A stretch of DNA of 64,000 bases from an uncultured delta proteobacterium (GTDB lineage: Bacteria; Myxococcota_A; Polyangia; Polyangiales; Polyangiaceae). Every line of letters begins with the position of its first letter. Position 1 is the stretch's first letter. The position numbers and the translations under genes are program-made. Shown piece after piece: positions 924 through 43,843 of this stretch. The DNA lies in NCBI GenBank assembly GCA_963716725.1, contig CAVQUB010000015.1, positions 288,001 through 352,000 of the forward strand. The letters are read 5' to 3'. The notes beneath the pieces are model-generated. The model saw only the letters and a program-made list of their open reading frames with translations, had not been told where the DNA came from and made no database searches.

Positions 924-2684
924 TCAGGGCACCTCGACGCCCTTCGCGGTCGCGGTCTCGATGGCCTCGGGGTAGCCCGCGATGGCGTGACGGGCCACGC
1001 CGACGCCTGGATCGACGGTGAGCACGCGGTCGAGGCGTTCGGCGCGCGCGTCGGTGCCATCGGCTACGACGACCATGCCCGCGTGCAGCGAGTTGCCGAT
1101 GCCGACGCCGCCGCCGTGGTGGAAGCTCACCCACGACGCCCCGGATGCGGTGTTGAGCGCAAAGTTCAGGAGCGCCCAGTCGGCGATGGCGTCGGAGCCG
1201 TCCCGCATGGCCTCGGTCTCGCGGTCCGGCGAGGCCACCGAGCCACAGTCGAGGTGATCCCGCCCGATGGCGACGGGCGCGCTCACCTTGCCGTCGTGGA
1301 TCAGCCGGTTCATCGCGAGGCCGAACTTGGCGCGATCGCCGTAGCCCAGCCAGCAGATGCGGGTGGGCATGGCCAAGAACGGCACCCGCTCGCTGGCCAG
1401 GCGCACCCAGCGATGCAGGCCTTCGTCGTCGGGGAACACCTTCAGGAGCTCCGCGTCGATCGCGTGGATGTCCTTGGCATCACCGCTCAAGGCGGCCCAA
1501 CGGAACGGGCCGAGTCCGCGGGAGAAGAGCGGGCGGATGTAGGCCGGGACGAAGCCCGGATACTTCCAGTGCCCGCTTTCGTCGCGCGCGCTCACGCCCG
1601 CGAGCTCGGCCTGGGCCCGCAGGTTGTTGCCGTAGTCGAAGGCGATGGCGCCGCGCCGCTGCATCTCGAGGATGGCTTCGACGTGCTTGGCGATGGCTGC
1701 CAGCGATCGCCGGTGGTACTCGGCGAGGTCTTTGCCTCGGAGCGTGTCGAGCTCGGAGAGATCGCCTTCCGGCACGTAGGCGCCAAGATCGTGGGCCGGG
1801 GTCTGATCGGTGACCATGTCCGGGGTCACGTTGCGGCGGACCAGCTCGGGATAGACCTCCGCCGCGTTGCCGACCAGGCCAATCGACAGACCGCGGCCCG
1901 CGCGCTTGGCTTCGTCGGCCCAGGCCAGCGCCTCGTCGAGGGAGTGGGTCATCTTGTCGCAGTAGCCTTCGGCCACCTTGCGCTCGACGCGATCGGCGCG
2001 GACCTCGACGTCGATCACCACGCCTTCGTTCATGGTCACGGCCATCGGTTGCGCGCCGCTCATGCCGCCAAGGCCCGCGGTGAGGACAAGCTTGCCCGCG
2101 AGGGACGGCACGCCGTAGTGCTTCTCGGCCGCTGCGAGGAAGGTCTGATAGGTGCCCTGCAAGATGCCTTGGGTGCCGATGTAGATCCAAGAACCGGCGG
2201 TCATCTGCCCGTACATGGTGAGCCCCATGCGGTCGAGTTCGTCGAAGTTCGACTGTGTTGCCCACTTGGGGACCAGGTTGCTGTTCGCGATGAGCACCCG
2301 GGGCGCGTGCTCGTGGGTCTTCGCGACGTACACCGCGCGACCGGACTGCACGCACAACGTCTCGTCGGGTGCGAGGCCGTCGAGCAGCGCCGTGATCTTG
2401 GAATACTCGTGCCAGTTCCGCGCGGCGCGTCCACTGCCGCCGTAGACGACCAGGTGTTGCCAGTCCACGGCGTTGGCCGGATCGAGGTTGTTCATCAACA
2501 TGCGCTTGGCGGCTTCGGCGTCCCAGCTCCGGGCGCTTCGCCGGGTGCCGCGTGGGGCGCGGGGCGCTTCGGCCGGGCGGGCGGCCATGTGCAAAGGTCG
2601 CCCATGACGAGCGAGCTCGCTGCCGATGTCGCAGGAGCACCCGTACTTTGCCCGCTCGTTTTCGACGATCTCGCGATCCTGCAT
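924..2684 (-). CDS. hutU: Urocanate hydratase
   Basis: [57 protein letters not shown] and [11 protein letters not shown] motifs. Confidence 0.97.
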
Positions 2685-2770
2685 GGGCGCGGAGCATAGC
2701 CCGCTCCTCGGGAAAATCGGAGGGTCAGGGCTGCGCGGCGGGCATGATAAGGTCTAACGTCGCTTCAGCC

Positions 2771-5700
2771 ATGGCAGCGGACGACGCATCCGGGTCCAAG
2801 AAACCACCCGTTCAGGGAAAGCGCTCGGTGCCGCCGCCGCCGCGCAAGGCTCCACCACCACAGCCGCCGGTCGGGTCGAATCCGAAGGCAGCGGTTCCTC
2901 CGCCGCCGCCGCAACGGCACCCAGCCGGCACCTCACCCGCCACGGGCGGCTCCGTCCGCGTGGTCCCGCCGCCGGTCGCGGTGGGCTCGGCCACCCAGAC
3001 TCCGAAGCCAGCTGCGGCCATGGCGATCCCGCCTCCGCTGCCGCAGTCACCGTCAGCGCAGTCGCCGTCTGCGCACTCACCGGCACCACACTCACCGGCA
3101 CCGCCGCCCGTTGCACCGCCGGTCGCGCCGCCGGTGCATCTCAAGACCGACATGGGACTTGGCGTCGCGCCCGTCAGCGAGACCCCGGTCTGGGCCCAGC
3201 GCGCGCTCCGGAAGCTCGACGCGGAGCTCGCGCGCACGAGCGATCCTCTGCGCGTCGGGCGCCTGCACTTCGAGATCGGGCGGCTCTACGAGTCGCCGCT
3301 CGGCGAGCTTGCGAGCGCCGCCGATCACTATCAGAAGGCGTACGCCACCTGTCCCGATCACTTGCCCACGCTGCGCGGCGCGCGGCGCGTGCTTTGCGCG
3401 ACCAAGAACTTCCACGGGGCGCTGCCGCTCTTCGACGCCGAAGCGCGCTACCTGTCCGAGCCGAGCCTCAAGGCTCAGCTGTTTTACGAGAAGGGACGCA
3501 CGCTCGAAGATCATCTGGCGCAGAAGCGTGAGGCCCGCGACGCCTACGCTGCGGCGGTCGATCTCGACGGACAGAATGCAACGTACCTGAAGGCCCTCGA
3601 ACGCGTCGATACGCAGGCCAAGGCCTGGGATGCCCTGGACAAGACCCTCGAACGCTCCGCAAACGCGGTCTCGAGCGATGCGCGTCACCGCGCGGCTCTG
3701 TTGGTCGAGCGCGCCCGCTTGGTCGAGGCGCGCAAGAGCGACAGCCGCACCGCCACGGAGTTGTACAACGAGGCTCTGGGCTTCGATCCCCGGGCTCCCG
3801 CCGCGCTCGAGGCCCTGAAGCGCCTGCACTACGCGCACCAACGCTGGCGAGACCTCACCTTCGTGCTCCAGCGCGAAGCGGAGCAGGCCAGCGACGTCAC
3901 CGTGCGGGGCATGGCCTACTACCGCATGGGCCGCGTGTTGGTCGATCGCCTCGGACATTTGGACGAAGGGCTCAGCGCCTTCGAACGTGCCGCGAGCGAG
4001 TTGCCCCACGAGCCGATGGTGCTGGAGGCGCTAGCGCGGCTCTACGAGCTGTCGAAACGCTGGGACGCCATCGCCAGCGTGCTCGAGCGCCTGTCGGATC
4101 TGGCGCGGTCCGATAGCGAGAAGCTGGGCATTCAACACCGCATCGGGCAGATCGCCGACGAGCGCCTGAACGACGAAGCGCGAGCCATCACCTGGTTCTC
4201 CAGCGCACTGTCGCTCGATCCGACCTACCTGCCCGCGCTGCAAGCGCTGGGCAAGATTTACACTCGCCGGCAGCAATGGGCCGAGCTGATCGAGATGCAT
4301 CTGGCCGAAGCCGGCGCAACGGCCGACGCGACCCGCAAGGCCGGCGCCCACGGCCGAGTCGCGGCCATCTACGAGGAACGCCTCGGCAACATCGAGCACG
4401 CCACGGCCCACCACTCGCGCGCGTTGGGGCTCGTGCCGGGCTACGCGTCGAGCTTCAAGGCGCTCTCCCGCATCTTCCAACAGGCGGGAAAGTGGCGTGA
4501 ATTGGTCGAACTCTTCGAGCGCGCGGTGGACGAGGCGAAGGAGCCCGAGACCAAGATCACCTACCTGTTCAAGATCGGTCGAGCCTGGGAAGACGCCCTC
4601 GGGTCGCCCGTCCACGCCATGAGCGCCTACAAACGCGTGCTCGACGTCTCGCCGAACCACGTGGGTGCCATCCACGCAGTGCAGCGCGCTGCCGAGCGCG
4701 CGGGTCGCTACAAGGAGTTGGTCTGGGCCCTGGAGCTCGAGGCCGAGAAGGCCACCGACAAGCGCCAAGCCGTGATGCTCCAGCACCGCGCGGGGGAGGT
4801 CTACGAAGACTGTCTGGCCGATGTCGAGAGCGCGATCGCTCGCTACAAACACGTCGTCGAGCTGGACTGCGGCTACCAACCCGCGCTGAGCAGCCTGGGC
4901 CGTTTGTTCTATGCCGCTGGTCGCTGGGAAGATCTGCTCGATACCTACAAGCGCGAGCTCGAGGTTGCGGCCAAGGGCGTCGCGTCGGCGGCGCTGCTGT
5001 ACAAGATGGGCGAACTGAGCGAGGAGCGCATTGGCAACGACGACGACGCCATTGGCTACTATCGCCGGGCCATTGACGCCGATCCCTTCCATCAGCCCGC
5101 GCTGCACGCGCTGGGGCGTAAGCTGGCCGAGCGTGGGCAGTGGCCCGAGCTCGTGAAGGTGATCGAGCTCGAGCTCTCGGGCCTGAAGGACCCGGCGGAA
5201 CGGGCGCGGGCTGCTTTCCACCTGGGCGAGGTCTACGAAAACCGTCTCTCTCAGGCGGATCGGGCGCTGGCTGCTTACGAGCAGGCCCTGGTGGCAGTTC
5301 CCGAGTTTCGCCCGGCGGCCGACGGCCGCTCGCGGCTGCTCACTCTGGCGCGGGACTACAAACGCCTCGCCGAAGACTTGGCGCGCGAGGTCAGCAGCGC
5401 CAGCGATCCGGTCGTGGCGATGGTGGCGCTCTTCCGTCAGGGCGAGCTCTTTCGCGACGAGCTCGGTGACACTCGACGCGCTATCGAGTCCTTCGAAGGG
5501 GTGCTCTCACGCGACCCGTCGCACCTCGGGGCGCTGCTGGCCCTCGAGCCGCTGTACACCGAGGTCGGCGCTTGGGAGCCTCTGGCACGGATATTCGCCA
5601 CCGAGGCTCGGGTCCTCACCGACTCGGGGGCCAGAGTCGCCGCGCTGAAGGAGCTCGCGCGCCTCGAAGAGATCCGCGGCGTGGGCAAGCCCGAGGAGAT

Positions 5701-8110
5701 CCGCGCCGCCTACATCAGCGTGCTCCAGCTCGCGCCCGCTGATCCCGGAGCCCTCTTCGCTCTCGAGCGCATCGCGCTCGCCGCGGGCGACGACCAGCTG
5801 CTCACCCACGTCGATGCCAAGCTCGGAGCGACGCTCTCGTCTCCGACGCTAGCGGCAGTGCATCAAACTCGACTCGCGGAGGCCCTGGAAGCCATGGGCG
5901 ATCCGAGCGCGCTGGAGACCTTCCGGGCGGCCTTGGCCCGCGATCGCGACAACCTGGCGGCGGCGTTGGGCGTGACGCGCCTTGCAGAGCAGAGCGACGA
6001 TCCCGGCCTCCTGGGCGAGGCCGCCGAACTCGCGTTCCGGGTGCTGCTCGACAAACCCTTGGGCGCGGCCATCTTGGTCCGCGCGTCGAGCGCGCTGGGC
6101 GAGCGTGGTGATGTCGAGGGCGCCGTGATGGCCCTCGAGGCTGCGCTCGAGAAGCACCCCGACAGCGTGGAGGCCGCGGCCGAGTTGCGCCGAATCCTGC
6201 TCGGCCGGCGCGAGTTCGATCGCCTCTTCGACACTCTGTGCCAGGCGGCCCAGTGGGCGAGTGATCGCGAGCGCATGGCGGGGCTGTGGCTCGACGTCTC
6301 GGAGATCCTGGCCGACGAGAAGCGGGATGTGCCCGCGGCAATCGCCGCGCTGCACCGGACCCTCGAGCACCTTCCTCGGCATGTGTCGACGCTGATGCGC
6401 CTCGCGGATCTCTACGGTCGCGACAAGCAGTGGGCCGAGGCGGTCGACCGGCTCAAGCAGACCCTCGCCGCAAATCCGCCGCCCGAGATCGAGATCGCTG
6501 CGCACCTCATGCTGTCGCGGATCTTGAAGGACGAGCTGGGCGACGAAGCGCGGGCGCTGGTCAGCCTGGAGAGGGTGCTGGTCTTGCATTCGAAGAACCG
6601 CGAGGCGCTGACCCGCGTGCTGGAGATCCAGATGCGTCGCGAGCAGATGGACGCCGCGGCAGCTACTGCGGCGGAGCTGGTGTCCGTCGCGTCGTCCAAC
6701 AAAGAGCGCGCCGAGACGCTGGGTCTGCTCGCGCGACTGAACCGCCAGAGCAAGAACCTCGACGCGGCTGCCAACGCCTACGAACAAGCCGTGACACTGG
6801 TCGGGACCGAGGGCACGACCGCGGCCGAATTCAAGGACCTGCTGCTCGAGCAGAAGCTCTTGGGCGAAGACCCCCGCTGGGACTACTACGTCGGCGCTCT
6901 CAGCGGCTACTCGGATTCGCAGAGCGACCCGCGCAAGCGTTCGGAGATCCAGCTCGAGATCGCCCAAGTGCTGGCCGACGAGATGGAACTCGGCGAGCGG
7001 GCACTGCACACGCTGCAACGGGCGCTGGCCGCCGACGTCGAGAACTCGGCGCTGCGCACCGAACTGGCAAAACGCCTGCGGCTCGCCGGTCACTACCCCC
7101 AAGCGCTGATCGAGCTTCGACGGTTGCTCGAGGCGGACGTGACCAAGATCGAGACCTGGGGCGCTATTCTCGAGTGCTTCCAGGGCATGAAGCGCACGGA
7201 GGAGGCGTCGCTGGCCATGGCGCCGCTCGTGGCGCTGGGCTTCGCGAACGATCTGGAGCGTGCGACCGTCTCGTCGCGCCCGTCGCACTTTGCCCGGGCA
7301 CGCCCCCAGTCCTTCGACGACACCGCGTTTCGCGGAGTCGACGCCCGCGGTGCTGATCCAGCGCTGGCGGTGCTGGCGGCCATTTCCGAGAACCTCGGCA
7401 AGGTGCATCCGCCGGAGCTCGAGCGCTGGGGTGTCTCGACGCGTGACCGCATCAACTCGCGCTCGGGCCACCCGCTGAAGCAGCTCGCGGATCGCGTCGC
7501 GGCGGTGTTCGGACCCTTGGAGTTCGACCTCTACCTGCACCGTGCCCACCAAGGCGGGCTGGAAATCGAGCTCACCGATCCGCCCGGCATCCTGGTGCCC
7601 GCCCACGTCGCGAATCTGCGGGAGACCGAGCAGATCTTCTTGTTTGCGCGCCCGATTGCGCTGTTGGCGCGGGGCGCTCACGTGCTCGGTCGTCTCGCGC
7701 CCGCCGAGATCGCGCTGCTCCTGCTCTCCGCGTGCCGGATCCTCGACCCGAGCTTTGGCGCAGGGCTGGCGGACGAAGACTTCCTGCAGGCGCAGTCGAA
7801 ACGCGTGCAGAAGGCGCTCTCGCGTCGTGCGCGCCGGGCGCTGGAGGAAAGCGCCGCTCCGTTCATGACTGGCCCGAGGCTGGACTGGGAGCAGTGGGCC
7901 TTCGAACACCGGAAGATAGCCTCGCGCGTCGCCGCGCTCCTGGCCGACGAGCTTCCGTCTTCCATTGCGCTGGTGCGCCGCATGGAAGGCGATCTGGCGG
8001 GATTGCGTGGGGCGGCCTTGGCCCAGGGCATCAACCTGACCCACGACCTGCTGCGCTTCTGGGTCAGCGACGCGGCTTTCGCCCTGCGTCGACGCGTTGG
8101 GCTGCTCTGA
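2771..8110 (+). CDS. Giant tetratricopeptide-repeat protein with Pro-rich N-terminus
   Basis: Dozens of TPR-like helical repeats (A..Y..AL..DP....AL..L.RLY). Start chosen at ATG 2771; the ORF track opens earlier. Confidence 0.85.
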   Translation: MAADDASGSKKPPVQGKRSVPPPPRKAPPPQPPVGSNPKAAVPPPPPQRHPAGTSPATGGSVRVVPPPVAVGSATQTPKPAAAMAIPPPLPQSPSAQSPSAHSPAPHSPAPPPVAPPVAPPVHLKTDMGLGVAPVSETPVWAQRALRKLDAELARTSDPLRVGRLHFEIGRLYESPLGELASAADHYQKAYATCPDHLPTLRGARRVLCATKNFHGALPLFDAEARYLSEPSLKAQLFYEKGRTLEDHLAQKREARDAYAAAVDLDGQNATYLKALERVDTQAKAWDALDKTLERSANAVSSDARHRAALLVERARLVEARKSDSRTATELYNEALGFDPRAPAALEALKRLHYAHQRWRDLTFVLQREAEQASDVTVRGMAYYRMGRVLVDRLGHLDEGLSAFERAASELPHEPMVLEALARLYELSKRWDAIASVLERLSDLARSDSEKLGIQHRIGQIADERLNDEARAITWFSSALSLDPTYLPALQALGKIYTRRQQWAELIEMHLAEAGATADATRKAGAHGRVAAIYEERLGNIEHATAHHSRALGLVPGYASSFKALSRIFQQAGKWRELVELFERAVDEAKEPETKITYLFKIGRAWEDALGSPVHAMSAYKRVLDVSPNHVGAIHAVQRAAERAGRYKELVWALELEAEKATDKRQAVMLQHRAGEVYEDCLADVESAIARYKHVVELDCGYQPALSSLGRLFYAAGRWEDLLDTYKRELEVAAKGVASAALLYKMGELSEERIGNDDDAIGYYRRAIDADPFHQPALHALGRKLAERGQWPELVKVIELELSGLKDPAERARAAFHLGEVYENRLSQADRALAAYEQALVAVPEFRPAADGRSRLLTLARDYKRLAEDLAREVSSASDPVVAMVALFRQGELFRDELGDTRRAIESFEGVLSRDPSHLGALLALEPLYTEVGAWEPLARIFATEARVLTDSGARVAALKELARLEEIRGVGKPEEIRAAYISVLQLAPADPGALFALERIALAAGDDQLLTHVDAKLGATLSSPTLAAVHQTRLAEALEAMGDPSALETFRAALARDRDNLAAALGVTRLAEQSDDPGLLGEAAELAFRVLLDKPLGAAILVRASSALGERGDVEGAVMALEAALEKHPDSVEAAAELRRILLGRREFDRLFDTLCQAAQWASDRERMAGLWLDVSEILADEKRDVPAAIAALHRTLEHLPRHVSTLMRLADLYGRDKQWAEAVDRLKQTLAANPPPEIEIAAHLMLSRILKDELGDEARALVSLERVLVLHSKNREALTRVLEIQMRREQMDAAAATAAELVSVASSNKERAETLGLLARLNRQSKNLDAAANAYEQAVTLVGTEGTTAAEFKDLLLEQKLLGEDPRWDYYVGALSGYSDSQSDPRKRSEIQLEIAQVLADEMELGERALHTLQRALAADVENSALRTELAKRLRLAGHYPQALIELRRLLEADVTKIETWGAILECFQGMKRTEEASLAMAPLVALGFANDLERATVSSRPSHFARARPQSFDDTAFRGVDARGADPALAVLAAISENLGKVHPPELERWGVSTRDRINSRSGHPLKQLADRVAAVFGPLEFDLYLHRAHQGGLEIELTDPPGILVPAHVANLRETEQIFLFARPIALLARGAHVLGRLAPAEIALLLLSACRILDPSFGAGLADEDFLQAQSKRVQKALSRRARRALEESAAPFMTGPRLDWEQWAFEHRKIASRVAALLADELPSSIALVRRMEGDLAGLRGAALAQGINLTHDLLRFWVSDAAFALRRRVGLL

Positions 8111-8199: not shown

Positions 8200-10224
<2,025 letters not shown>

Positions 10225-10293
10225 AGTCCGCGACCCTGCAATCCATCGAGCCGCGGGACGACGTCGCCATGGCAGGCATCGTTCGCCCTCGCG

Positions 10294-10653
10294 CTAGGAC
10301 AACGCAAACAGCGCGGTCGATGCGATGGCTAGGACCCAGGCCCAAGCGGCGATGAGTCGTCCCCGGCCCTGGACCGACGCCTGCTCAGCCGGGTCGATGA
10401 TGGGCTCGAGTCCCTGGTCGGTTTCGCGCAGACCGCGCGACGCCTTGTAGCTTCAAGTGCCGTAAAGCCCTTGCAGAAAGCCGCGGGCCGACAGCGCGAA
10501 GGGCAAGATCAACAGCAGGCGCCAGGCCCAATGCACGCCAGTCTTGGCCAAGACGGTCGCCGCCAGGAGCGTGCCGGCCAGCGCAAATACGCCGATGCCC
10601 AGGTCGCGGGCCCGGCAGGTGGGGCTCAGATTGGTCACCGCGGTCGATTCCAT
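10294..10653 (-). CDS. Small membrane protein with in-frame TGA (10453-10455); probable selenoprotein, 119 aa with U67
   Basis: The frame continues past TGA as SYKASRGLRETDQGLEPIIDPAEQASVQGRGRLIAAWAWVLAIASTALFALS to a TAG at 10294, adding another TM helix. A SECIS-like hairpin follows the TGA. Confidence 0.75.
10424..10440 (-). promoter_or_regulatory. Putative bacterial SECIS element
   Basis: TCGCGC-GGTCT-GCGCGA, a perfect 6-bp stem; the loop G is 19 nt after the UGA. Confidence 0.7.
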
Positions 10654-10722
10654 GGTGGGGCCGATGTACTAAGCCTAGCGAATTGTGCCGCTGGCGTCAG
10701 TGGCAGGCTCGAGCTTTCGACC

Positions 10723-13461
10723 GTGACCGTTGTTGATTCCAAGTCTGCCGTGCGGTTGTCCCTGGTGGACGTGCGGGCCGGCGAGCGTCGACCGCTGCTG
10801 GCGGCAGCGGGGACCCTCTTCGGGCTGGTCGCTGCCCACTCCCTGCTGGAGACCGCGCGGGACGCCCTGTTCCTCGACCAGCTCGCGCCCACCCGGCTGC
10901 CGATCGTCTACCTGATCGTCGCGGTGCTGGGCTTTGGGCTCACGGATCTGAACGCGCGCTTCATTCGCCGCTTCGGCCGCCGCAACGCCTTGGTCGTGAC
11001 GCTGGCCCTCTACGCGATGGGCACGACCTGGTTCAATTTCCGGCCGCTGACGCCCGCCCTCGCCATGGGGCTCTACGTCTGGAGCGCCCTGGCAGGTTCG
11101 CTGGGCGTCGTTCAGTTCTGGTTGTTCGCGAGCGAGGCGTTCACGTCGGCGCAGAGCAAGCGCTTCTTCCCGGCCATCTCTGCCGGCGGCGTGCTCGGGG
11201 CCGTGGTGGGCTCGGGCATCGCCGTCGTGCTGCTCTCGCTGCTCCCGGTCGGCAGCTTGCTGCTCGTCGCCGCGGGGCTGGCGCTCGGGACCGCCTTGCT
11301 TGTCGCCCAGAGCGCCGAGCCCGACGCGACGCTACCCGCGGAGCGGGCCCCCAAGCCCGCGCTCAGCGGCGGTCTTGGGCTGTTGTCGAGCGACAGATAC
11401 CTGCTGCGCGTCGCGGTCCTGGTCGTCACCTCGACGCTCGCGGTCCTGACCTTGGACTACCTGTTCAAGAGCACGGCTGCGGCGCGCTTCCCGAAATCGG
11501 AGCTCGGACCGTTTTTTGCTCGCTACTACGGCGCGGCGAACACCGCGGCGCTCGCCGTGCAGTTGCTCGTGGCCGGCCGCATGTTGCGACGCTTCGGCGT
11601 GGCGACGGCGCTGGCGGTACTGCCGATCTGCCTCGTTGCGGGCTCCGCCGGCCTCCTGCTGATGGGCGGCAGCTTCGCTGTGTTGCTCCTGACCAAGGGC
11701 GCTGACGGTGCGCTCCGTCACTCCCTGCACCGGGTTTCCTCCGAGCTCTTGTACCTGCCGCTGGAACCCGCGCTGCGCGATCGAGCCAAGCCGCTGGTGG
11801 ACTCGGTGCTCGCTCGCTCAGCTCAGGCGGTCGGCGCCGGCGTGCTCCTGGTGCTCGCGAGCTTCGGTCTGGGCACGGTCGTCGTGCTGAGCGGGGTCGT
11901 GATCGCCCTGGCGTTGGTCTGGGTAGTCGCTGCCGCGTCGATTCGACGGCCCTACCTGGATCTCTTCCGTCAATCCTTGGGTCGGGGCGACGAGAGCGCC
12001 AGAGTGTCGCTCGAAGATTTGGATTTGGCCGCCGCGGAGACCGTGATCGAGGCCCTGTCGAGCCCCGAGTCTGCGCGGGCGCTGGCCGCCATGAACTTGC
12101 TCGCAGATGCAAAACGCTCGCGGTTGATACCAGCGCTCATTCTTTTTCACGATCGCGAAGAGGTGCTGCTGCGCGCCCTGGAGGTCGTCCCCGACGCGCA
12201 TCGCGCGGACTGGGTGCCGCTCGCTCGACGCTTGCTCGATCACGTTTCCCCTCGGGTCGTCGCCGCGGCAGCGCGCGCGCTCGGCCGCTTCGGCAAGCTG
12301 CCCGCCGAAGCGCACCCGACCGGGGCCTTGCGCGCCTTCATCACGATCGAGCGACTGAGCCGCGACTCCCCGGTGGTCGCCGAAGAGGATCCCGACGTCG
12401 CCGCCATGCTGGAGGGCGCGTCGCCCGAGTGCAGCAGCGCCCGGGCAGCTCTCGCCAACGCCATCGCGGATACCAGAGACTTGCGCTTTTCGGGGCTGGC
12501 TCAGCGTCTCTCCCGGGACGCGGATCCAGAGGTGGCCGGGCTCGCCATCGCTGCGCTCGGCCAGATCCAAGACGCCGACAGCCTGCCCTTCTTGGTCGGG
12601 CTCTTGGCGGACGCGAAGCACCGCGCGACCGCGGTCCAGTCCCTGGCGCCCTTCGGAGACCGGGCGGTCGACGCGCTGGCGAAGGCCCTCATCGATCCGG
12701 CCGCTCCGGCCCGCGTTCGTCGCGAAGCGCCGCGCGCCCTCGCTGAGGTCGGCAGCGAAGGGGCAGGTCTGGTGCTGTTCGACGCGCTGGTGTCGGATAT
12801 CCCGGGCCTCGTCCGCTATCGCGTCCTGCGGGCGCTCGGCACAATGGTGCGCAAGCGTGCGATCCGGGTCGATCGCGATGGCATCGAGCCCGAGCTCAGG
12901 CGCAACCTGCTGGAGTGTCTCCGCTTTGCTTCCCTCGAGGTTGCTTTCGAAGAAGGCGAGCCGGCGCCGGAGCGTGCGCGGGCGAGCCATCGCTTGCTCC
13001 GTGGCCTGATCCACGACAAGCAGCGGCAGGCACGGGAGCGCGCCTTTCGAATCCTGCAAATGCTCCACCCGAATGAGGACTTCCGCAGCGTCTACTTCTC
13101 TCTCGAGTCGGACGACAAGCGGCTGCGAGCCCATGCCCTCGAGTTCGTCGAGGCGCTGACCCTGAACGCCAAGGACGAGCTGCGGGAGCTCTTGCGTTGG
13201 GTCATCGATGACCTCTCGCCGCGGGAACGCGTCGAGCGCGCCGGGGCCTTTCTGGAAGGTCGCCCGCGGATCCGGGACGAAGCACTGGCGGCCATGCTCG
13301 CCGATCCCGACGACGCCCTCGCCACCCTCGCGGCCTACCACGTCCGCGCGCTCGCCCTCGCCGAGCTCGATGGCGAGGCCGAAGCGGTGTTCAGCCAACG
13401 CCGCTGGGTGCCCCTCGAGACCATGCCGCCGCCGCTGCTCGATGGAGAGATTCGTGGCTGA
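10723..13461 (+). CDS. NTT/Npt (TLC ATP/ADP transporter-like) MFS domain fused to HEAT repeats
   Basis: About 12 TM segments with LLETARDALFL, QFWLFASEAFTSAQSKRFF, LDYLFK and ELLYLPL...RAKPLVD, followed by HEAT-like repeats. Start approximate. Confidence 0.8.
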   Translation: MTVVDSKSAVRLSLVDVRAGERRPLLAAAGTLFGLVAAHSLLETARDALFLDQLAPTRLPIVYLIVAVLGFGLTDLNARFIRRFGRRNALVVTLALYAMGTTWFNFRPLTPALAMGLYVWSALAGSLGVVQFWLFASEAFTSAQSKRFFPAISAGGVLGAVVGSGIAVVLLSLLPVGSLLLVAAGLALGTALLVAQSAEPDATLPAERAPKPALSGGLGLLSSDRYLLRVAVLVVTSTLAVLTLDYLFKSTAAARFPKSELGPFFARYYGAANTAALAVQLLVAGRMLRRFGVATALAVLPICLVAGSAGLLLMGGSFAVLLLTKGADGALRHSLHRVSSELLYLPLEPALRDRAKPLVDSVLARSAQAVGAGVLLVLASFGLGTVVVLSGVVIALALVWVVAAASIRRPYLDLFRQSLGRGDESARVSLEDLDLAAAETVIEALSSPESARALAAMNLLADAKRSRLIPALILFHDREEVLLRALEVVPDAHRADWVPLARRLLDHVSPRVVAAAARALGRFGKLPAEAHPTGALRAFITIERLSRDSPVVAEEDPDVAAMLEGASPECSSARAALANAIADTRDLRFSGLAQRLSRDADPEVAGLAIAALGQIQDADSLPFLVGLLADAKHRATAVQSLAPFGDRAVDALAKALIDPAAPARVRREAPRALAEVGSEGAGLVLFDALVSDIPGLVRYRVLRALGTMVRKRAIRVDRDGIEPELRRNLLECLRFASLEVAFEEGEPAPERARASHRLLRGLIHDKQRQARERAFRILQMLHPNEDFRSVYFSLESDDKRLRAHALEFVEALTLNAKDELRELLRWVIDDLSPRERVERAGAFLEGRPRIRDEALAAMLADPDDALATLAAYHVRALALAELDGEAEAVFSQRRWVPLETMPPPLLDGEIRG

Positions 13462-14389
13462 GAGCATCGTCAAGCGCGTCGAATATTCGCTCTTCTTGCG
13501 CACTCTCTTCGGCGGGCGTCGCTCCGGCGTGGCGGTCGAGCGGGTGGCGACGCTGATGCGCGATGTCTACTTCGACGCCGGTCAGGTCATCTACCGGCGG
13601 GCCGAGGCGAGCACGCACATCTACTTCATCGTCTCGGGGCAGATCGTGCTCGATGCACCAGGGCTCGCTCCGTGGACCTTCGGGCCACGGGACGGCGTGG
13701 GCTTCCTCGACGCCATGCAGGACGCACCGCACGCTCGCACCGCCCGCGCGGCCACCGACGTGCACGCCTTGGCCTTCTCGGTGGAGGACTGGTTCGACGT
13801 CCTGGAAGGTCACCCCGAGCTCGGCCGCGGCGCGCTCTTGGATCACGCAGATTCAGTCGCGAAGATGATCGAGGTGATCGGCGTCGCTCGAGCGTTTCCC
13901 GGCGGACACGCTCCCGTCCCGGCGGATCTCCGGCGCCCTCCGGGGTTGGTCGAGCGCATGCTCGCGCTGACCGACTCGCCGATCTTCGCCCGAGCGGGGA
14001 TCCAGGCGGTGGCGGTCCTGGCGCAGCGGGCCCGGCCTGTGGCGCTGCACGAAGGCGCAGAGATCGTGCGCGAAGGCGCGCCGCGCGACCATCGGCTCTG
14101 GCTAGTGGGGCAGGGCGAAGTCGCGCTGCGTCGCTCCGAGGAGAGCGAAGCGGGGCGCGTTGGCCCCGGCGCCTTGGTCGGTGGGTTGGCGGTCATGGCG
14201 CGCGACGATCAGAGCGCCACGCTGAGTGCGGCGACCGACACGGTGGCGCTCGAATTCAGCGAATACGACCTCATGGACGTCATGGACGATCACTTCGACT
14301 TCTCCAAGGCGATCTTCGCCTACATGGCGCGAGAGCGCGGGCGGCTGATGGAGATCGTGGCGCAAGGGCGGGCGCCGATCAGCAGCTGA
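13454..14389 (+). CDS. Tandem cyclic-nucleotide-binding (cNMP/Crp-like) domain protein
   Basis: Two CAP_ED-like units (FDAGQVIYRRAE..IYFIVSG; LHEGAEIVREG..LWLVGQGEV). GTG start with GGAGA RBS overlaps the upstream stop. Confidence 0.8.
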   Translation: MAESIVKRVEYSLFLRTLFGGRRSGVAVERVATLMRDVYFDAGQVIYRRAEASTHIYFIVSGQIVLDAPGLAPWTFGPRDGVGFLDAMQDAPHARTARAATDVHALAFSVEDWFDVLEGHPELGRGALLDHADSVAKMIEVIGVARAFPGGHAPVPADLRRPPGLVERMLALTDSPIFARAGIQAVAVLAQRARPVALHEGAEIVREGAPRDHRLWLVGQGEVALRRSEESEAGRVGPGALVGGLAVMARDDQSATLSAATDTVALEFSEYDLMDVMDDHFDFSKAIFAYMARERGRLMEIVAQGRAPISS

Positions 14390-42167: not shown

Positions 42168-43115
42168 ATGCTGGGACGCGCTCTACTGTTGCTCGCACTG
42201 GTAGGGTCCGGCTGCGGCGGCGGCGAGGCCGACTCCAAGGCGGGCGGCACGGGCGGCGGCGGAGCCAGCGGGACCGGCGGCACCAGCGCGACCGGCGGGG
42301 GCGCCGGCAAGGGCGGCCCCTGCGCCGACGATCCTGGACCCGGTTCGGTGTGCGTGATGCACGTGTTGGGGCGGGTGGTGGACGGCGCGGGCCAGCCGCT
42401 GCCCCAGCTCTCGACCAGCGTCTGTGGCGAGGTGTGCTGGTTTGGCGAGTCCGACGCCAGCGGCGAGTTCAGCGTGGCCATCGGCGAGCGCATCCTCCCC
42501 GGCCTGTTCTCGGTCTTGCCGCACGGTCGCCCGAAGCACACGAGCTTCTACTTCCCACTGCCTGCGGCGCTCTCGGCGAGCATCGACGTCGGCGACCTCT
42601 CGTTGCTCGAGCTTCCTGCCAGCGGCCCTGCGCTCGTGGTGTGGTCCGACAAGCAGGGCGCGCCGGCCCAGACGGTCGACAGCGGCGGTCTGCGTCTGGA
42701 GGTGAGCGCGGGCACTCAGGTGAAGCTCGACGTCGAGGACGTCGCACAAGACGTGCTCGGCAGACAGTTCCGCGTGCTGCCGATCCCGGCGGCGCAGCGC
42801 GATCACTTCGCCGATGGGGCGCTGGGTCTCGCGGCGTTGTGGGCGCTGATGCCCTTCGAAGCCGCCATCGTGCAGGAGAGCGGCGGCGCGCCGGCGCTCG
42901 CGCGGATCAGCGCCGACAACAGCGCGGTTCTCCCGGCGGACACCGCGGTCGAGTGGTTGGCGCTGGGCAGCTATTTGTTCGCGGACTGGGTGGCCCCGGC
43001 CCAGTTCGAGGTCGTCGCCACCGGCAAGGTGAGCTCGGATGGCCTACGCATCGAAATGGACGCTGGGCAGGGGACCCCGTACCTCACGTGGATCGGAGTG
43101 CGAAAGAAGCCATGA
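42168..43115 (+). CDS. Lipoprotein with carboxypeptidase-regulatory-like beta-sandwich
   Basis: Lipobox GSGC, Gly linker and GRVVDGAGQPL...SDASGEF. ATGA overlap with the next gene. Confidence 0.65.
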   Translation: MLGRALLLLALVGSGCGGGEADSKAGGTGGGGASGTGGTSATGGGAGKGGPCADDPGPGSVCVMHVLGRVVDGAGQPLPQLSTSVCGEVCWFGESDASGEFSVAIGERILPGLFSVLPHGRPKHTSFYFPLPAALSASIDVGDLSLLELPASGPALVVWSDKQGAPAQTVDSGGLRLEVSAGTQVKLDVEDVAQDVLGRQFRVLPIPAAQRDHFADGALGLAALWALMPFEAAIVQESGGAPALARISADNSAVLPADTAVEWLALGSYLFADWVAPAQFEVVATGKVSSDGLRIEMDAGQGTPYLTWIGVRKKP

Positions 43116-43843
43116 CACCCAAGCACCTGCGGAGCATTTCGATCGGTCTCGTGCTCGCCCTCCAAGTGGGCTCGGGCGCGTGCGGTTCCGATGACGCGTC
43201 GGGTAACGGTGGCAGCGGCGGCCTCACGCAATCCGGTGGCAGTGGCGGTCTCACCGCGGGCGCGGGCGGGGTCGCCACCGGAGGCTCGGCCGGGGTGGGG
43301 CTCGATGCCAGCGCGGACGCTCCCATCGACTACGGACCGTACCCGGCCGGGCCCTACGGCAACGCGGTGGGCGACACCATCGCGAACCTCGCCTGGCAGG
43401 GCCACGTCAACCTCAGCGCGGCGGTTTCGTCCGACACGCTGCCCTCCAGCGACTATTCGACCGACGACATGCGCAAGAGCGGCAAGTCGTACGGGCTGAT
43501 ACACCTCTCCGCCTTCACCTGACCCGGCTGCAAGAAGGCCGCCCAGGTCTTGGGCGGGAGTCAGCAGAAAGGCAAGGCGGCCATCGAGGCGGGCGGTCTG
43601 GTGGTGGAGATCCTGCACTCCGGCGACGTGCTCGCGTGGATCAAGGCCGAAGACCTGCACGTGACGGTCGTCGAACCGAAGGACCCGCAGACCTTGGCGG
43701 CGCTCGTCTCCCGCGAGTGGACCTACGTGATCGATCTGAAGACCATGAAGATCGTCTGGAAGGGCTTCGGCAGTTACGATGGCAGCAAGGCCTCGAGCGT
43801 CGACGCGGGCCTGAGTGAGCTGATGACCCTGCTCGGCAAGTGA
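43112..43843 (+). CDS. Thioredoxin-fold (redoxin-like) lipoprotein with UPGC motif; probable selenoprotein, 243 aa with U137
   Basis: LIHLSAFT-TGA-PGC reads as UxxC at the canonical active-site position. The frame continues to TYVIDLKTMKI and a stop at 43843, with a SECIS-like hairpin after the TGA. Confidence 0.85.
43539..43557 (+). promoter_or_regulatory. Putative bacterial SECIS element
   Basis: CCGCCCA-GGTCT-TGGGCGG, a perfect 7-bp stem; the loop G is 24 nt after the UGA at 43520-43522. Confidence 0.75.

Follow-up and report, generated by a model that had tools for sequence, protein, structure and literature searches.

A candidate membrane selenoprotein behind an in-frame UGA codon in an uncultured Polyangiaceae bacterium

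Here we describe a short gene on the minus strand of a 64,000-nucleotide stretch of contig CAVQUB010000015.1 (positions 288,001 to 352,000; GenBank assembly GCA_963716725.1), from an uncultured delta proteobacterium of the family Polyangiaceae. This whole stretch is referred to as the window, and positions are those of the window unless another contig is named. The gene is cut by an in-frame TGA after 66 codons, and we find it very probable, from the comparison of sequences set out below, that it is a real selenoprotein gene in which the UGA at 10455-10453 is read as selenocysteine (Sec). An initial annotation of the window had proposed that the TGA encodes Sec in a small protein with three transmembrane (TM) helices. 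This proposal is supported by a codon column in which homologs carry either Cys or TGA, by a hairpin behind the TGA in 12 of 12 TGA-bearing genes, by the presence of the Sec machinery in the genome and by the retention of the TGA in public sequence data.

The reading frame continues beyond the TGA

From the ATG at 10653 on the minus strand, the open reading frame (ORF) runs for 66 amino acids to the TGA, with the C-terminal sequence GFLQGLYGT. The frame then remains open for 52 further codons, giving 119 residues in total; both parts of this description were already in the initial annotation, and the sequence and its translation agree with them. The features that concern the gene itself are as follows, where SECIS stands for selenocysteine insertion sequence and nt for nucleotides.

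10297..10653, minus strand: predicted selenoprotein coding sequence of 119 codons, with Met1 at 10653-10651 and Sec67 at 10455-10453 (from the read-through translation and homologs matching residues 1-119)
10453..10455, minus strand: in-frame UGA, read as the putative Sec at residue 67 (from the Cys/TGA column in homologs)
10294..10296, minus strand: TAG, the true stop (from the sequence and translation)
10424..10440, minus strand: SECIS-like hairpin UCGCGC-GGUCU-GCGCGA, nt +16 to +32 counted from the U of the UGA (from sequence, fold and conservation)

The in-frame G+C content at third codon positions (GC3) is 0.85 upstream of the TGA and 0.81 downstream of it; read in its two alternative frames, the downstream part has values of 0.69 and 0.55. 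The ratio of nonsynonymous to synonymous substitution rates (dN/dS) is 0.22-0.34 before the TGA and 0.18-0.39 after it, in the three pairs formed by the window gene and its two closest orthologues. Judged on these properties, the DNA 3' of the TGA is coding. A start codon giving an ORF of at least 30 amino acids was not found in the downstream frame, and a split gene was ruled out because there is no start codon 3' of the TGA. In public records, Sec forms are entered as a 66-residue 'hypothetical protein' (MCC6902669.1, MBI3204624.1), and a Cys form as the 122-residue hypothetical protein MEZ4222891.1.

Homologs carry Cys or TGA at the same column

A six-frame search of 61 related genomes gave matches in 14 of them, spanning up to residues 1-119; nine of the matching places have one TGA inside and six have no stop. 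When 401 genomes sampled from the phylum were searched with the profile, nine had matches, at six places with a TGA and five without. Counting repeats once and adding one locus reached via a neighbouring gene, we obtained a set of 24 distinct genes, which were aligned to the family profile. The codon at the column in question is TGA in 12 of these genes, TGC or TGT in 11 and GAT (Asp) in the remaining one, with similarity on both sides. Less was recovered by a word-based homolog search, which returned only one near-identical 66-residue entry, and by a related-locus search with the single protein as query, which found no relative.

A HMMER search of 1.84 billion representative proteins returned 231 matches at E <=0.001, mostly of about 120 residues. 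At least five of the 150 matches listed (P0003, P0005, P0123, P0148 and P0152) end exactly at query residue 66, the truncation that would be expected if gene callers had cut Sec forms at their TGA. From the 150 matches listed, 108 were picked by hand and joined with the window protein in a 109-member alignment, leaving out the five truncated at residue 66, short fragments and, for no reason of content, some full-length rows. Column 67 is Cys in 104 of the 108 aligned database homologs, and Ser in two, Gly in one and Asp in one. Within this alignment Asn8 is invariant, and conservation is 90% or more at each of Pro51, Cys67 and Gly74. The downstream frame aligns with the C-terminal half of the Cys homologs of about 120 residues, and none of the 11 other TGA genomes has a frameshift or an extra stop downstream. 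The initial annotation would have taken as support a column of Cys or conserved TGA flanked by similarity on either side, and both the 24 genes and the database homologs display this. It had also pointed out that the protein has no CxxU motif; this is true, and can be refined in that a second Cys lies within eight residues of Asn8 in 53 of the 109 members, and is Cys13 in the genus of the window, the window protein included.

A maximum-likelihood tree of the 24 genes separates two clades with 99/99 support each. Sec forms account for 8 of the 16 genes in clade A and 4 of the 8 in clade B, and the well-supported branches force at least two Sec/Cys changes, with a parsimony count of five. The clade-A loci span protein identities of 31-71%.

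A SECIS-like hairpin accompanies the TGA

The perfect hairpin reported in the initial annotation, TCGCGC-GGTCT-GCGCGA, is present in the sequence and is recovered by folding, with a stem of 6 base pairs (bp) and a loop of 5 nt. It begins 12 nt past the TGA and places the loop GGUCU at nt +22 to +26. The accompanying comparison with the GGUC(U) loop of Escherichia coli fdhF also holds on the K-12 record: the only in-frame stop of fdhF is the TGA at codon 140, and the minimum-energy fold places the apical loop GGUC at nt 22-25, against nt 22-26 for GGUCU in the window gene. The two elements differ in their stems, which in fdhF is long and interrupted and starts from nt 3, whereas in the window gene it is a short, perfect 6-bp G+C stem from nt 16; the window protein is, moreover, unrelated to formate dehydrogenase.

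A TGA followed at a gap of 11-14 nt by the exact hairpin occurs once in the 7.9-Mb genome, at this gene. Across the family, all 12 TGA genes have a perfect stem of 6-8 bp at nt +15 to +33, two of them in a register shifted by 1-2 nt, with loops GGUCU, GGUCA, GGUCG, GGU/GUU, GGC or CGGGA; such a hairpin at that place was found in none of the 12 non-TGA genes. The mean folding energy of nt +10 to +42 is -13.2 kcal/mol in TGA genes vs -8.9 kcal/mol in non-TGA genes (one-sided Mann-Whitney p = 0.0019, a generous value, the genes being kin). The Cys gene G011 and the Sec gene G035 share the peptide AAQGLRD at the hairpin spot, and their synonymous codons pair only in G035. In a gap-free alignment of the 12 Sec genes, 88.1% of the cells are paired and four of the seven pairs have changes on both sides. 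The covariation score is 0.234, vs 0.084 in shuffles, and was reached by none of 500 of these; sliding the partner by 1-3 columns leaves 15.5-59.5% paired. That the hairpin acts as a coding-region SECIS of the fdhF type is strongly supported by this comparative evidence.

The genome encodes the Sec machinery

The genome that contains the window is a draft of 7.9 Mb in 35 contigs, 84% complete. It holds the machinery that the initial annotation had marked out as worth looking for, with each protein above its curated cut-off: selA at 467 bits (cut-off 268), selB at 281 (cut-off 242) and selD at 302 (cut-off 125). A tRNA-Sec adjoins selB (Rfam, 70 bits; ARAGORN tRNA-SeC, anticodon TCA). The genes selA and selB and the tRNA-Sec lie within about 12 kb on contig C32 (262008-273859), and selD lies on contig C6 (227368-228291). 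The selD gene is itself a Sec form, with a TGA in a G-G-G-U motif and a hairpin downstream. Among relatives, selA is present in all eight that bear the TGA form, in three of the six with only the Cys form, and in 21 of the 61 overall. A formate dehydrogenase of the FdhN-alpha type was not found in this 84%-complete genome, so Sec may be used here chiefly for small selenoproteins that are not yet catalogued.

The stretch is contained in 20 public sequencing runs from nine studies, none of which is an RNA dataset. Sequencing support at the codon, raised as a point to check in the initial annotation, is likewise at hand: contigs of four runs, each from a different study, all have the TGA at 10453-10455, and they show seven differences elsewhere in the 651 bases compared. 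One of these differences, at 10411, falls on a third codon position downstream of the TGA. All of the outcomes that the initial annotation had named as refuting were looked into, and each check favoured Sec.

Predicted fold, topology and family relationships

AlphaFold2, run with the family alignment on the 119-residue read-through product, gave a model with a mean predicted local distance difference test score (pLDDT) of 95.6 and a predicted template modelling score (pTM) of 0.83. The model comprises helices at residues 11-38, 42-64 and 88-118, a short helix at 68-72 after Sec67, and a beta-hairpin formed by residues 75-78 and 81-84. The third hydrophobic helix that had been noticed in the last 52 codons corresponds to the helix at 88-118, with a family mean Kyte-Doolittle value of 1.73. 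Family means for Lys plus Arg are 3.5 in the N-terminal segment, 0.4 in the loop 37-41 and 6.6 in the linker 64-99. Given this distribution and the positive-inside rule, which is well established, we infer that the N-terminus, Sec67 and the 64-99 linker are cytoplasmic, with Sec67 at the cytoplasmic end of helix 2. Since residue 9 pairs with the beta-hairpin in the model, a Cys-Sec pair in space, between Cys13 and Sec67, is possible.

The window protein belongs to no family in Pfam-A or NCBIfam release 20.0, and the selenoprotein models in these two collections match none of the 109 members. The nearest relationship that we could trace is to the YgaP-like TM domain (PF11127, formerly DUF2892). 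PF11127 gives no hit to the window protein at E <=10, and weak hits to 14 of the 109 members, the best of them at 24.0 bits (cut-off 25.3) over profile positions 4-58; six of the 108 relatives score 17.6-24.0 bits at E <=0.005, and none reaches the gathering cut-off. An hhalign comparison of the family with 26 canonical PF11127 domains collected from relatives gave a probability of 63.7% (E 6.7e-5, 56 columns), in which the N-terminal Asn, Arg and Gly match and Cys67 falls on the invariant Cys of DUF2892.

The likeness between the two consists of two TM helices after an Asn...Arg...Gly pattern, then a conserved Cys with a Gly seven residues on. They differ in length and motif. PF11127 has about 66 residues and stops shortly behind the Cys motif, whereas the Sec/Cys family is about 45-50 residues longer, the extra part consisting of the short helix, the beta-hairpin and the third TM helix; and where the canonical domain has C-P-x-Y, the Sec/Cys family instead has C/U-x3-A-x2-G-x-R. 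Genome searches with PF11127 do not retrieve genes of the Sec/Cys family, and among canonical PF11127 domains in the 401 phylum genomes a TGA occurs in none of the 150 matches listed, and a TAG in three. Taken on these sequence comparisons, the family is a probable distant relative of the YgaP-like TM domain that falls short of membership. The placement of the protein outside known families in the initial annotation is thus sustained in part: it has no CxxU motif and falls in no curated family, but it is a probable distant, sub-threshold relative of DUF2892, with its Sec aligned on the invariant Cys of that domain.

Searches for a known fold gave little. A sequence search of the Protein Data Bank (PDB) with the family profile returned rows at chance level (best E 2.7), and Foldseek against the PDB had no match at E <=0.001 (best E 1.0). 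Of about 48,000 chains compared by VIA-align, the best had a Z of 7.1 (7d3u_G, root-mean-square deviation 5.2, 86 aligned), a value usual for helical bundles. A structure search with the natural Cys homolog P0004 returned a fungal RAX1_C look-alike, which we took to be a generic three-helix match, and otherwise unnamed clusters. No known fold can be named from these searches for the three-helix protein.

A conserved divergent neighbour

The neighbours of the gene are a TLC/MFS-HEAT fusion (MFS, major facilitator superfamily), a protein that binds cyclic nucleotide monophosphates (cNMP) and a peptidase.

10726..13461, plus strand: TLC (ATP/ADP-transporter-like)/MFS-HEAT fusion, the divergent neighbour, 911 amino acids from the GTG at 10726, a start inferred from orthologue alignment (Pfam HEAT_2 7.9e-22, TLC 1.3e-13)
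13208..14389, plus strand: protein with two cNMP-binding domains, following TLC-HEAT (Pfam cNMP_binding 1.9e-23, 2 stretches); 13208 is the first start codon of the ORF, and the real start is probably near 13460
8200..10224, plus strand: S9 prolyl-oligopeptidase-type peptidase, the convergent downstream neighbour (Pfam Peptidase_S9 4e-36)

The initial annotation had the small gene transcribed divergently from a nucleotide-transporter (NTT)-HEAT/cNMP operon, an arrangement that proved both real and conserved. Of the 16 clade-A loci, 15, the window included, have the small gene directly next to the TLC/MFS-HEAT gene (about 911-945 residues) and in divergent orientation; in the 16th it lies about 2.3 kb away. 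A cNMP_binding gene follows TLC/MFS-HEAT in all 12 loci scanned with Pfam. The S9 peptidase adjoins the small gene only in loci of the same genus (L063-L065), and beside none of the scanned loci did we see a gene for metal resistance or sulfur metabolism. Named relatives of TLC-HEAT come from metagenome-assembled genomes of Polyangiaceae, Polyangiales or Myxococcales, the closest at 75% identity, and by this measure the window probably derives from a member of the Polyangiaceae.

Two observations concern the neighbours themselves. The two-gene unit of TLC/MFS-HEAT and a double-cNMP protein, the latter with no other Pfam domain, is conserved (window 10726-14389, plus strand; L063-L071, L074 and L075). 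Upstream of the S9 peptidase, positions 2552-8110 on the plus strand hold a very long ORF, which counts 1852 amino acids from its first start codon and is rich in Pro in its N-terminal region.

A complex was predicted for two proteins of a same-genus relative, its natural Cys-type small protein and residues 1-450 of the adjacent TLC-HEAT protein. It scored 0.57, marked as 'weak support', and the best of three controls scored 0.00; contact agreement between the runs is at least 90%, and the pLDDT of the partner is at least 73. Among solved complexes, 58 of 80 attain the mark of 'weak support', as do 2 of 110 mismatched pairs, but at scores of 0.60 or below it is attained by only 7 of the 80 and by both mismatches.

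Other candidates in the window and the genome

A second gene in the window is likely to be a hidden selenoprotein. It lies at 43112-43843 on the plus strand and has 243 codons, with a TGA at 43520-43522 in the motif F-T-U-P-G-C (UxxC), an N-terminus resembling a signal peptide with a lipobox, and a 7-bp hairpin whose GGUCU loop occupies nt 27-31 after the UGA. Neither Pfam nor NCBIfam gives a hit to this gene. Seventeen of the 61 relatives match it, and of the 34 matches listed 20 have one TGA and 14 have none; the best matches listed cover the whole query on both sides of the TGA. A crude genome-wide screen for a TGA with a G-rich-loop hairpin and coding-like GC3 on both sides gave 17 candidates, of which by eye only the window gene described above and the gene with the TGA at 43520 resemble real proteins. 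The screen missed selD and is thus not exhaustive.

Discussion

Our analysis suggests a model in which the UGA at 10455-10453 would be decoded as Sec during translation, with the hairpin and its GGUCU loop recruiting SelB and Sec-tRNA(Sec), for both of which the genome has the genes. Translation would yield an inner-membrane protein of 119 residues with three long helices, in which Sec67 would sit at the cytoplasmic end of helix 2, directly before the short helix and the beta-hairpin. This residue would occupy the one nearly invariant Cys position of the family, which in turn would correspond to the invariant Cys of DUF2892. A Sec/Cys pair usually marks a chemically active cysteine, and for this reason we propose that the selenol would be the reactive residue of the family at the membrane surface. 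It might be used in redox switching, or in the transfer or binding of sulfur, selenium or a soft metal, and Sec67 may pair with the nearby N-terminal Cys13. The small protein may also work with, and perhaps dock on, the TLC/MFS-HEAT protein and its cNMP-binding partner. This functional part of the model, in which selenol chemistry (a redox switch, a sulfur/selenium relay or soft-metal binding) is coupled to the TLC-HEAT/cNMP module, is advanced tentatively, as quite possible though short of probable.

A number of findings weigh against one or other part of this model. Four of the 108 aligned homologs are without Cys at the site, and the related genomes are kin, so that the counts drawn from them overstate independence. 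The hairpin by itself is not above chance in DNA of about 70% G+C: the 81-nt fold has a z of -0.66, with 48 of 200 shuffles as stable, and a 15-nt motif allowing one mismatch occurs three times in the window against 2.26 expected. Equally stable folds (-13.2 to -14.2 kcal/mol), of other shape and at another place, are present in 3 of the 12 non-TGA genes. Rfam, its bacterial SECIS models included, has no match at E <=10 in 10100-10800; these models are family-specific. The hairpin, as far as sequence can tell, exceeds chance only through the comparison with other genomes. Regarding function, the small gene is missing from the available flanks of two of the seven TLC-HEAT loci found by protein search, the eight clade-B genes lie in unrelated contexts with no common theme, and the complex score falls in a range described as 'more often wrong than right unless the guess was likely beforehand'. 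No Cys is invariant among the 14 aligned TLC-HEAT orthologues, a finding that argues against a fixed intermolecular Se-S bond between the two proteins.

Two explanations would dispense with Sec altogether. Were the TGA an ordinary stop, translation would end with a two-helix protein of 66 residues, and the following 52 codons would be left untranslated or form part of another product. Public annotation adopts this reading in 66-residue hypothetical proteins such as MCC6902669.1 and MBI3204624.1 and, as we understand it, some termination at UGA always competes with Sec insertion. We nevertheless consider an ordinary stop very unlikely, as the downstream frame has coding GC3 and a dN/dS of 0.18-0.39, offers no start codon for an ORF of at least 30 amino acids, and aligns with the C-terminal half of the longer Cys homologs; in 12 genes, spread over two deep clades, the TGA furthermore coincides exactly with the Cys column, and TGA forms occur in selA-positive genomes only (8 of 8 relatives). 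An error of assembly or sequencing, or a recent nonsense mutation that left a pseudogene, might be suspected in a draft assembly of 35 contigs and 84% completeness. Such an origin is extremely improbable in view of the contigs of four runs from four studies, which agree at 10453-10455 while differing at seven other places, and of the 11 other genomes that have the TGA with no frameshift or further stop downstream.

The remaining alternatives accept the selenoprotein and differ over its role. It may be real but act alone, as a membrane-anchored carrier of, or site for, sulfane sulfur, selenium or a soft metal or metalloid, with the adjacency to TLC-HEAT reflecting shared regulation or lineage history. 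A stand-alone role would fit the unrelated neighbourhoods of clade B (8 of the 24 genes, 4 of them Sec), the mere 'weak support' of the complex score and the probable distant link to the YgaP-like TM domain, which we understand to point to rhodanese-linked sulfur chemistry. It would also fit a 2026 review of the prokaryotic selenoproteome, the accessible text of which implicates most Sec-containing transporter-associated proteins in metal or metalloid resistance (PMC13188914). Such a role is less easily squared with divergent adjacency in 15 of 16 clade-A loci across protein identities of 31-71%, with complex-prediction controls that are all 0.00, or with scanned loci that have no metal-resistance or sulfur-metabolism gene beside them, and we regard it as possible, if on the doubtful side. 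At the other extreme, the small protein could be the reactive, redox- or chalcogen-sensing subunit of a three-part membrane module, docked on the MFS domain of TLC-HEAT, which would also be under cNMP control. Because the Sec sits on a DUF2892-type Cys, this would extend to a superfamily-wide use of the YgaP-like TM Cys in selenol or thiol chemistry at the cytoplasmic face; the near-palindromic, G+C-rich codons of the R-G-x-R motif that directly follows the Cys would have pre-adapted the gene to repeated Cys-to-Sec switches. We think this three-part scheme rather unlikely.

The family appears to be new among bacterial selenoproteins, being uncatalogued in the accessible parts of the sources that we consulted, and it could stand under another name in the BSepDB family table. 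The main text and family table of the 2026 review (PMC13188914), as far as accessible, carry no mention of PF11127, DUF2892, YgaP, 'transmembrane', 'membrane protein' or 'inner membrane', and the same is true of the accessible text of the BSepDB paper (PMC13326102). The nine new selenoprotein families given in the accessible text of the deep-Sep paper (PMC12013277) are all other than the one described here. Our literature search found nothing linking DUF2892 with selenocysteine or YgaP with a selenoprotein. Membrane or transport selenoproteins named in the accessible text of the review are the YeeE/YedE family, a putative mercuric transport protein, the SaoP permease and the SO_0444 efflux transporter (PMC13188914). 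These resemble the window protein in having, by that account, Sec in an integral membrane protein and not in a soluble enzyme of thioredoxin fold. They are unrelated to it in sequence, as none of the 109 members matches the Pfam or NCBIfam families of these proteins, and the window protein has a single Sec with no adjacent Cys motif.

If Sec is indeed inserted at residue 67, the prokaryotic selenoproteome would gain a membrane-embedded family without a CxxU-type motif. Public annotation, in which the Sec forms are filed as 66-residue hypothetical proteins, would be corrected accordingly. Since Sec/Cys pairs usually mark active cysteines, the finding indicates which residue is functional in an uncharacterised family of proteins about 120 residues long and, via the probable distant relationship, may do the same for the very common DUF2892/YgaP-like domain. 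The conserved pairing with the TLC/MFS-HEAT and cNMP genes, in turn, would provide a handle on the function of those transporter-like fusions.

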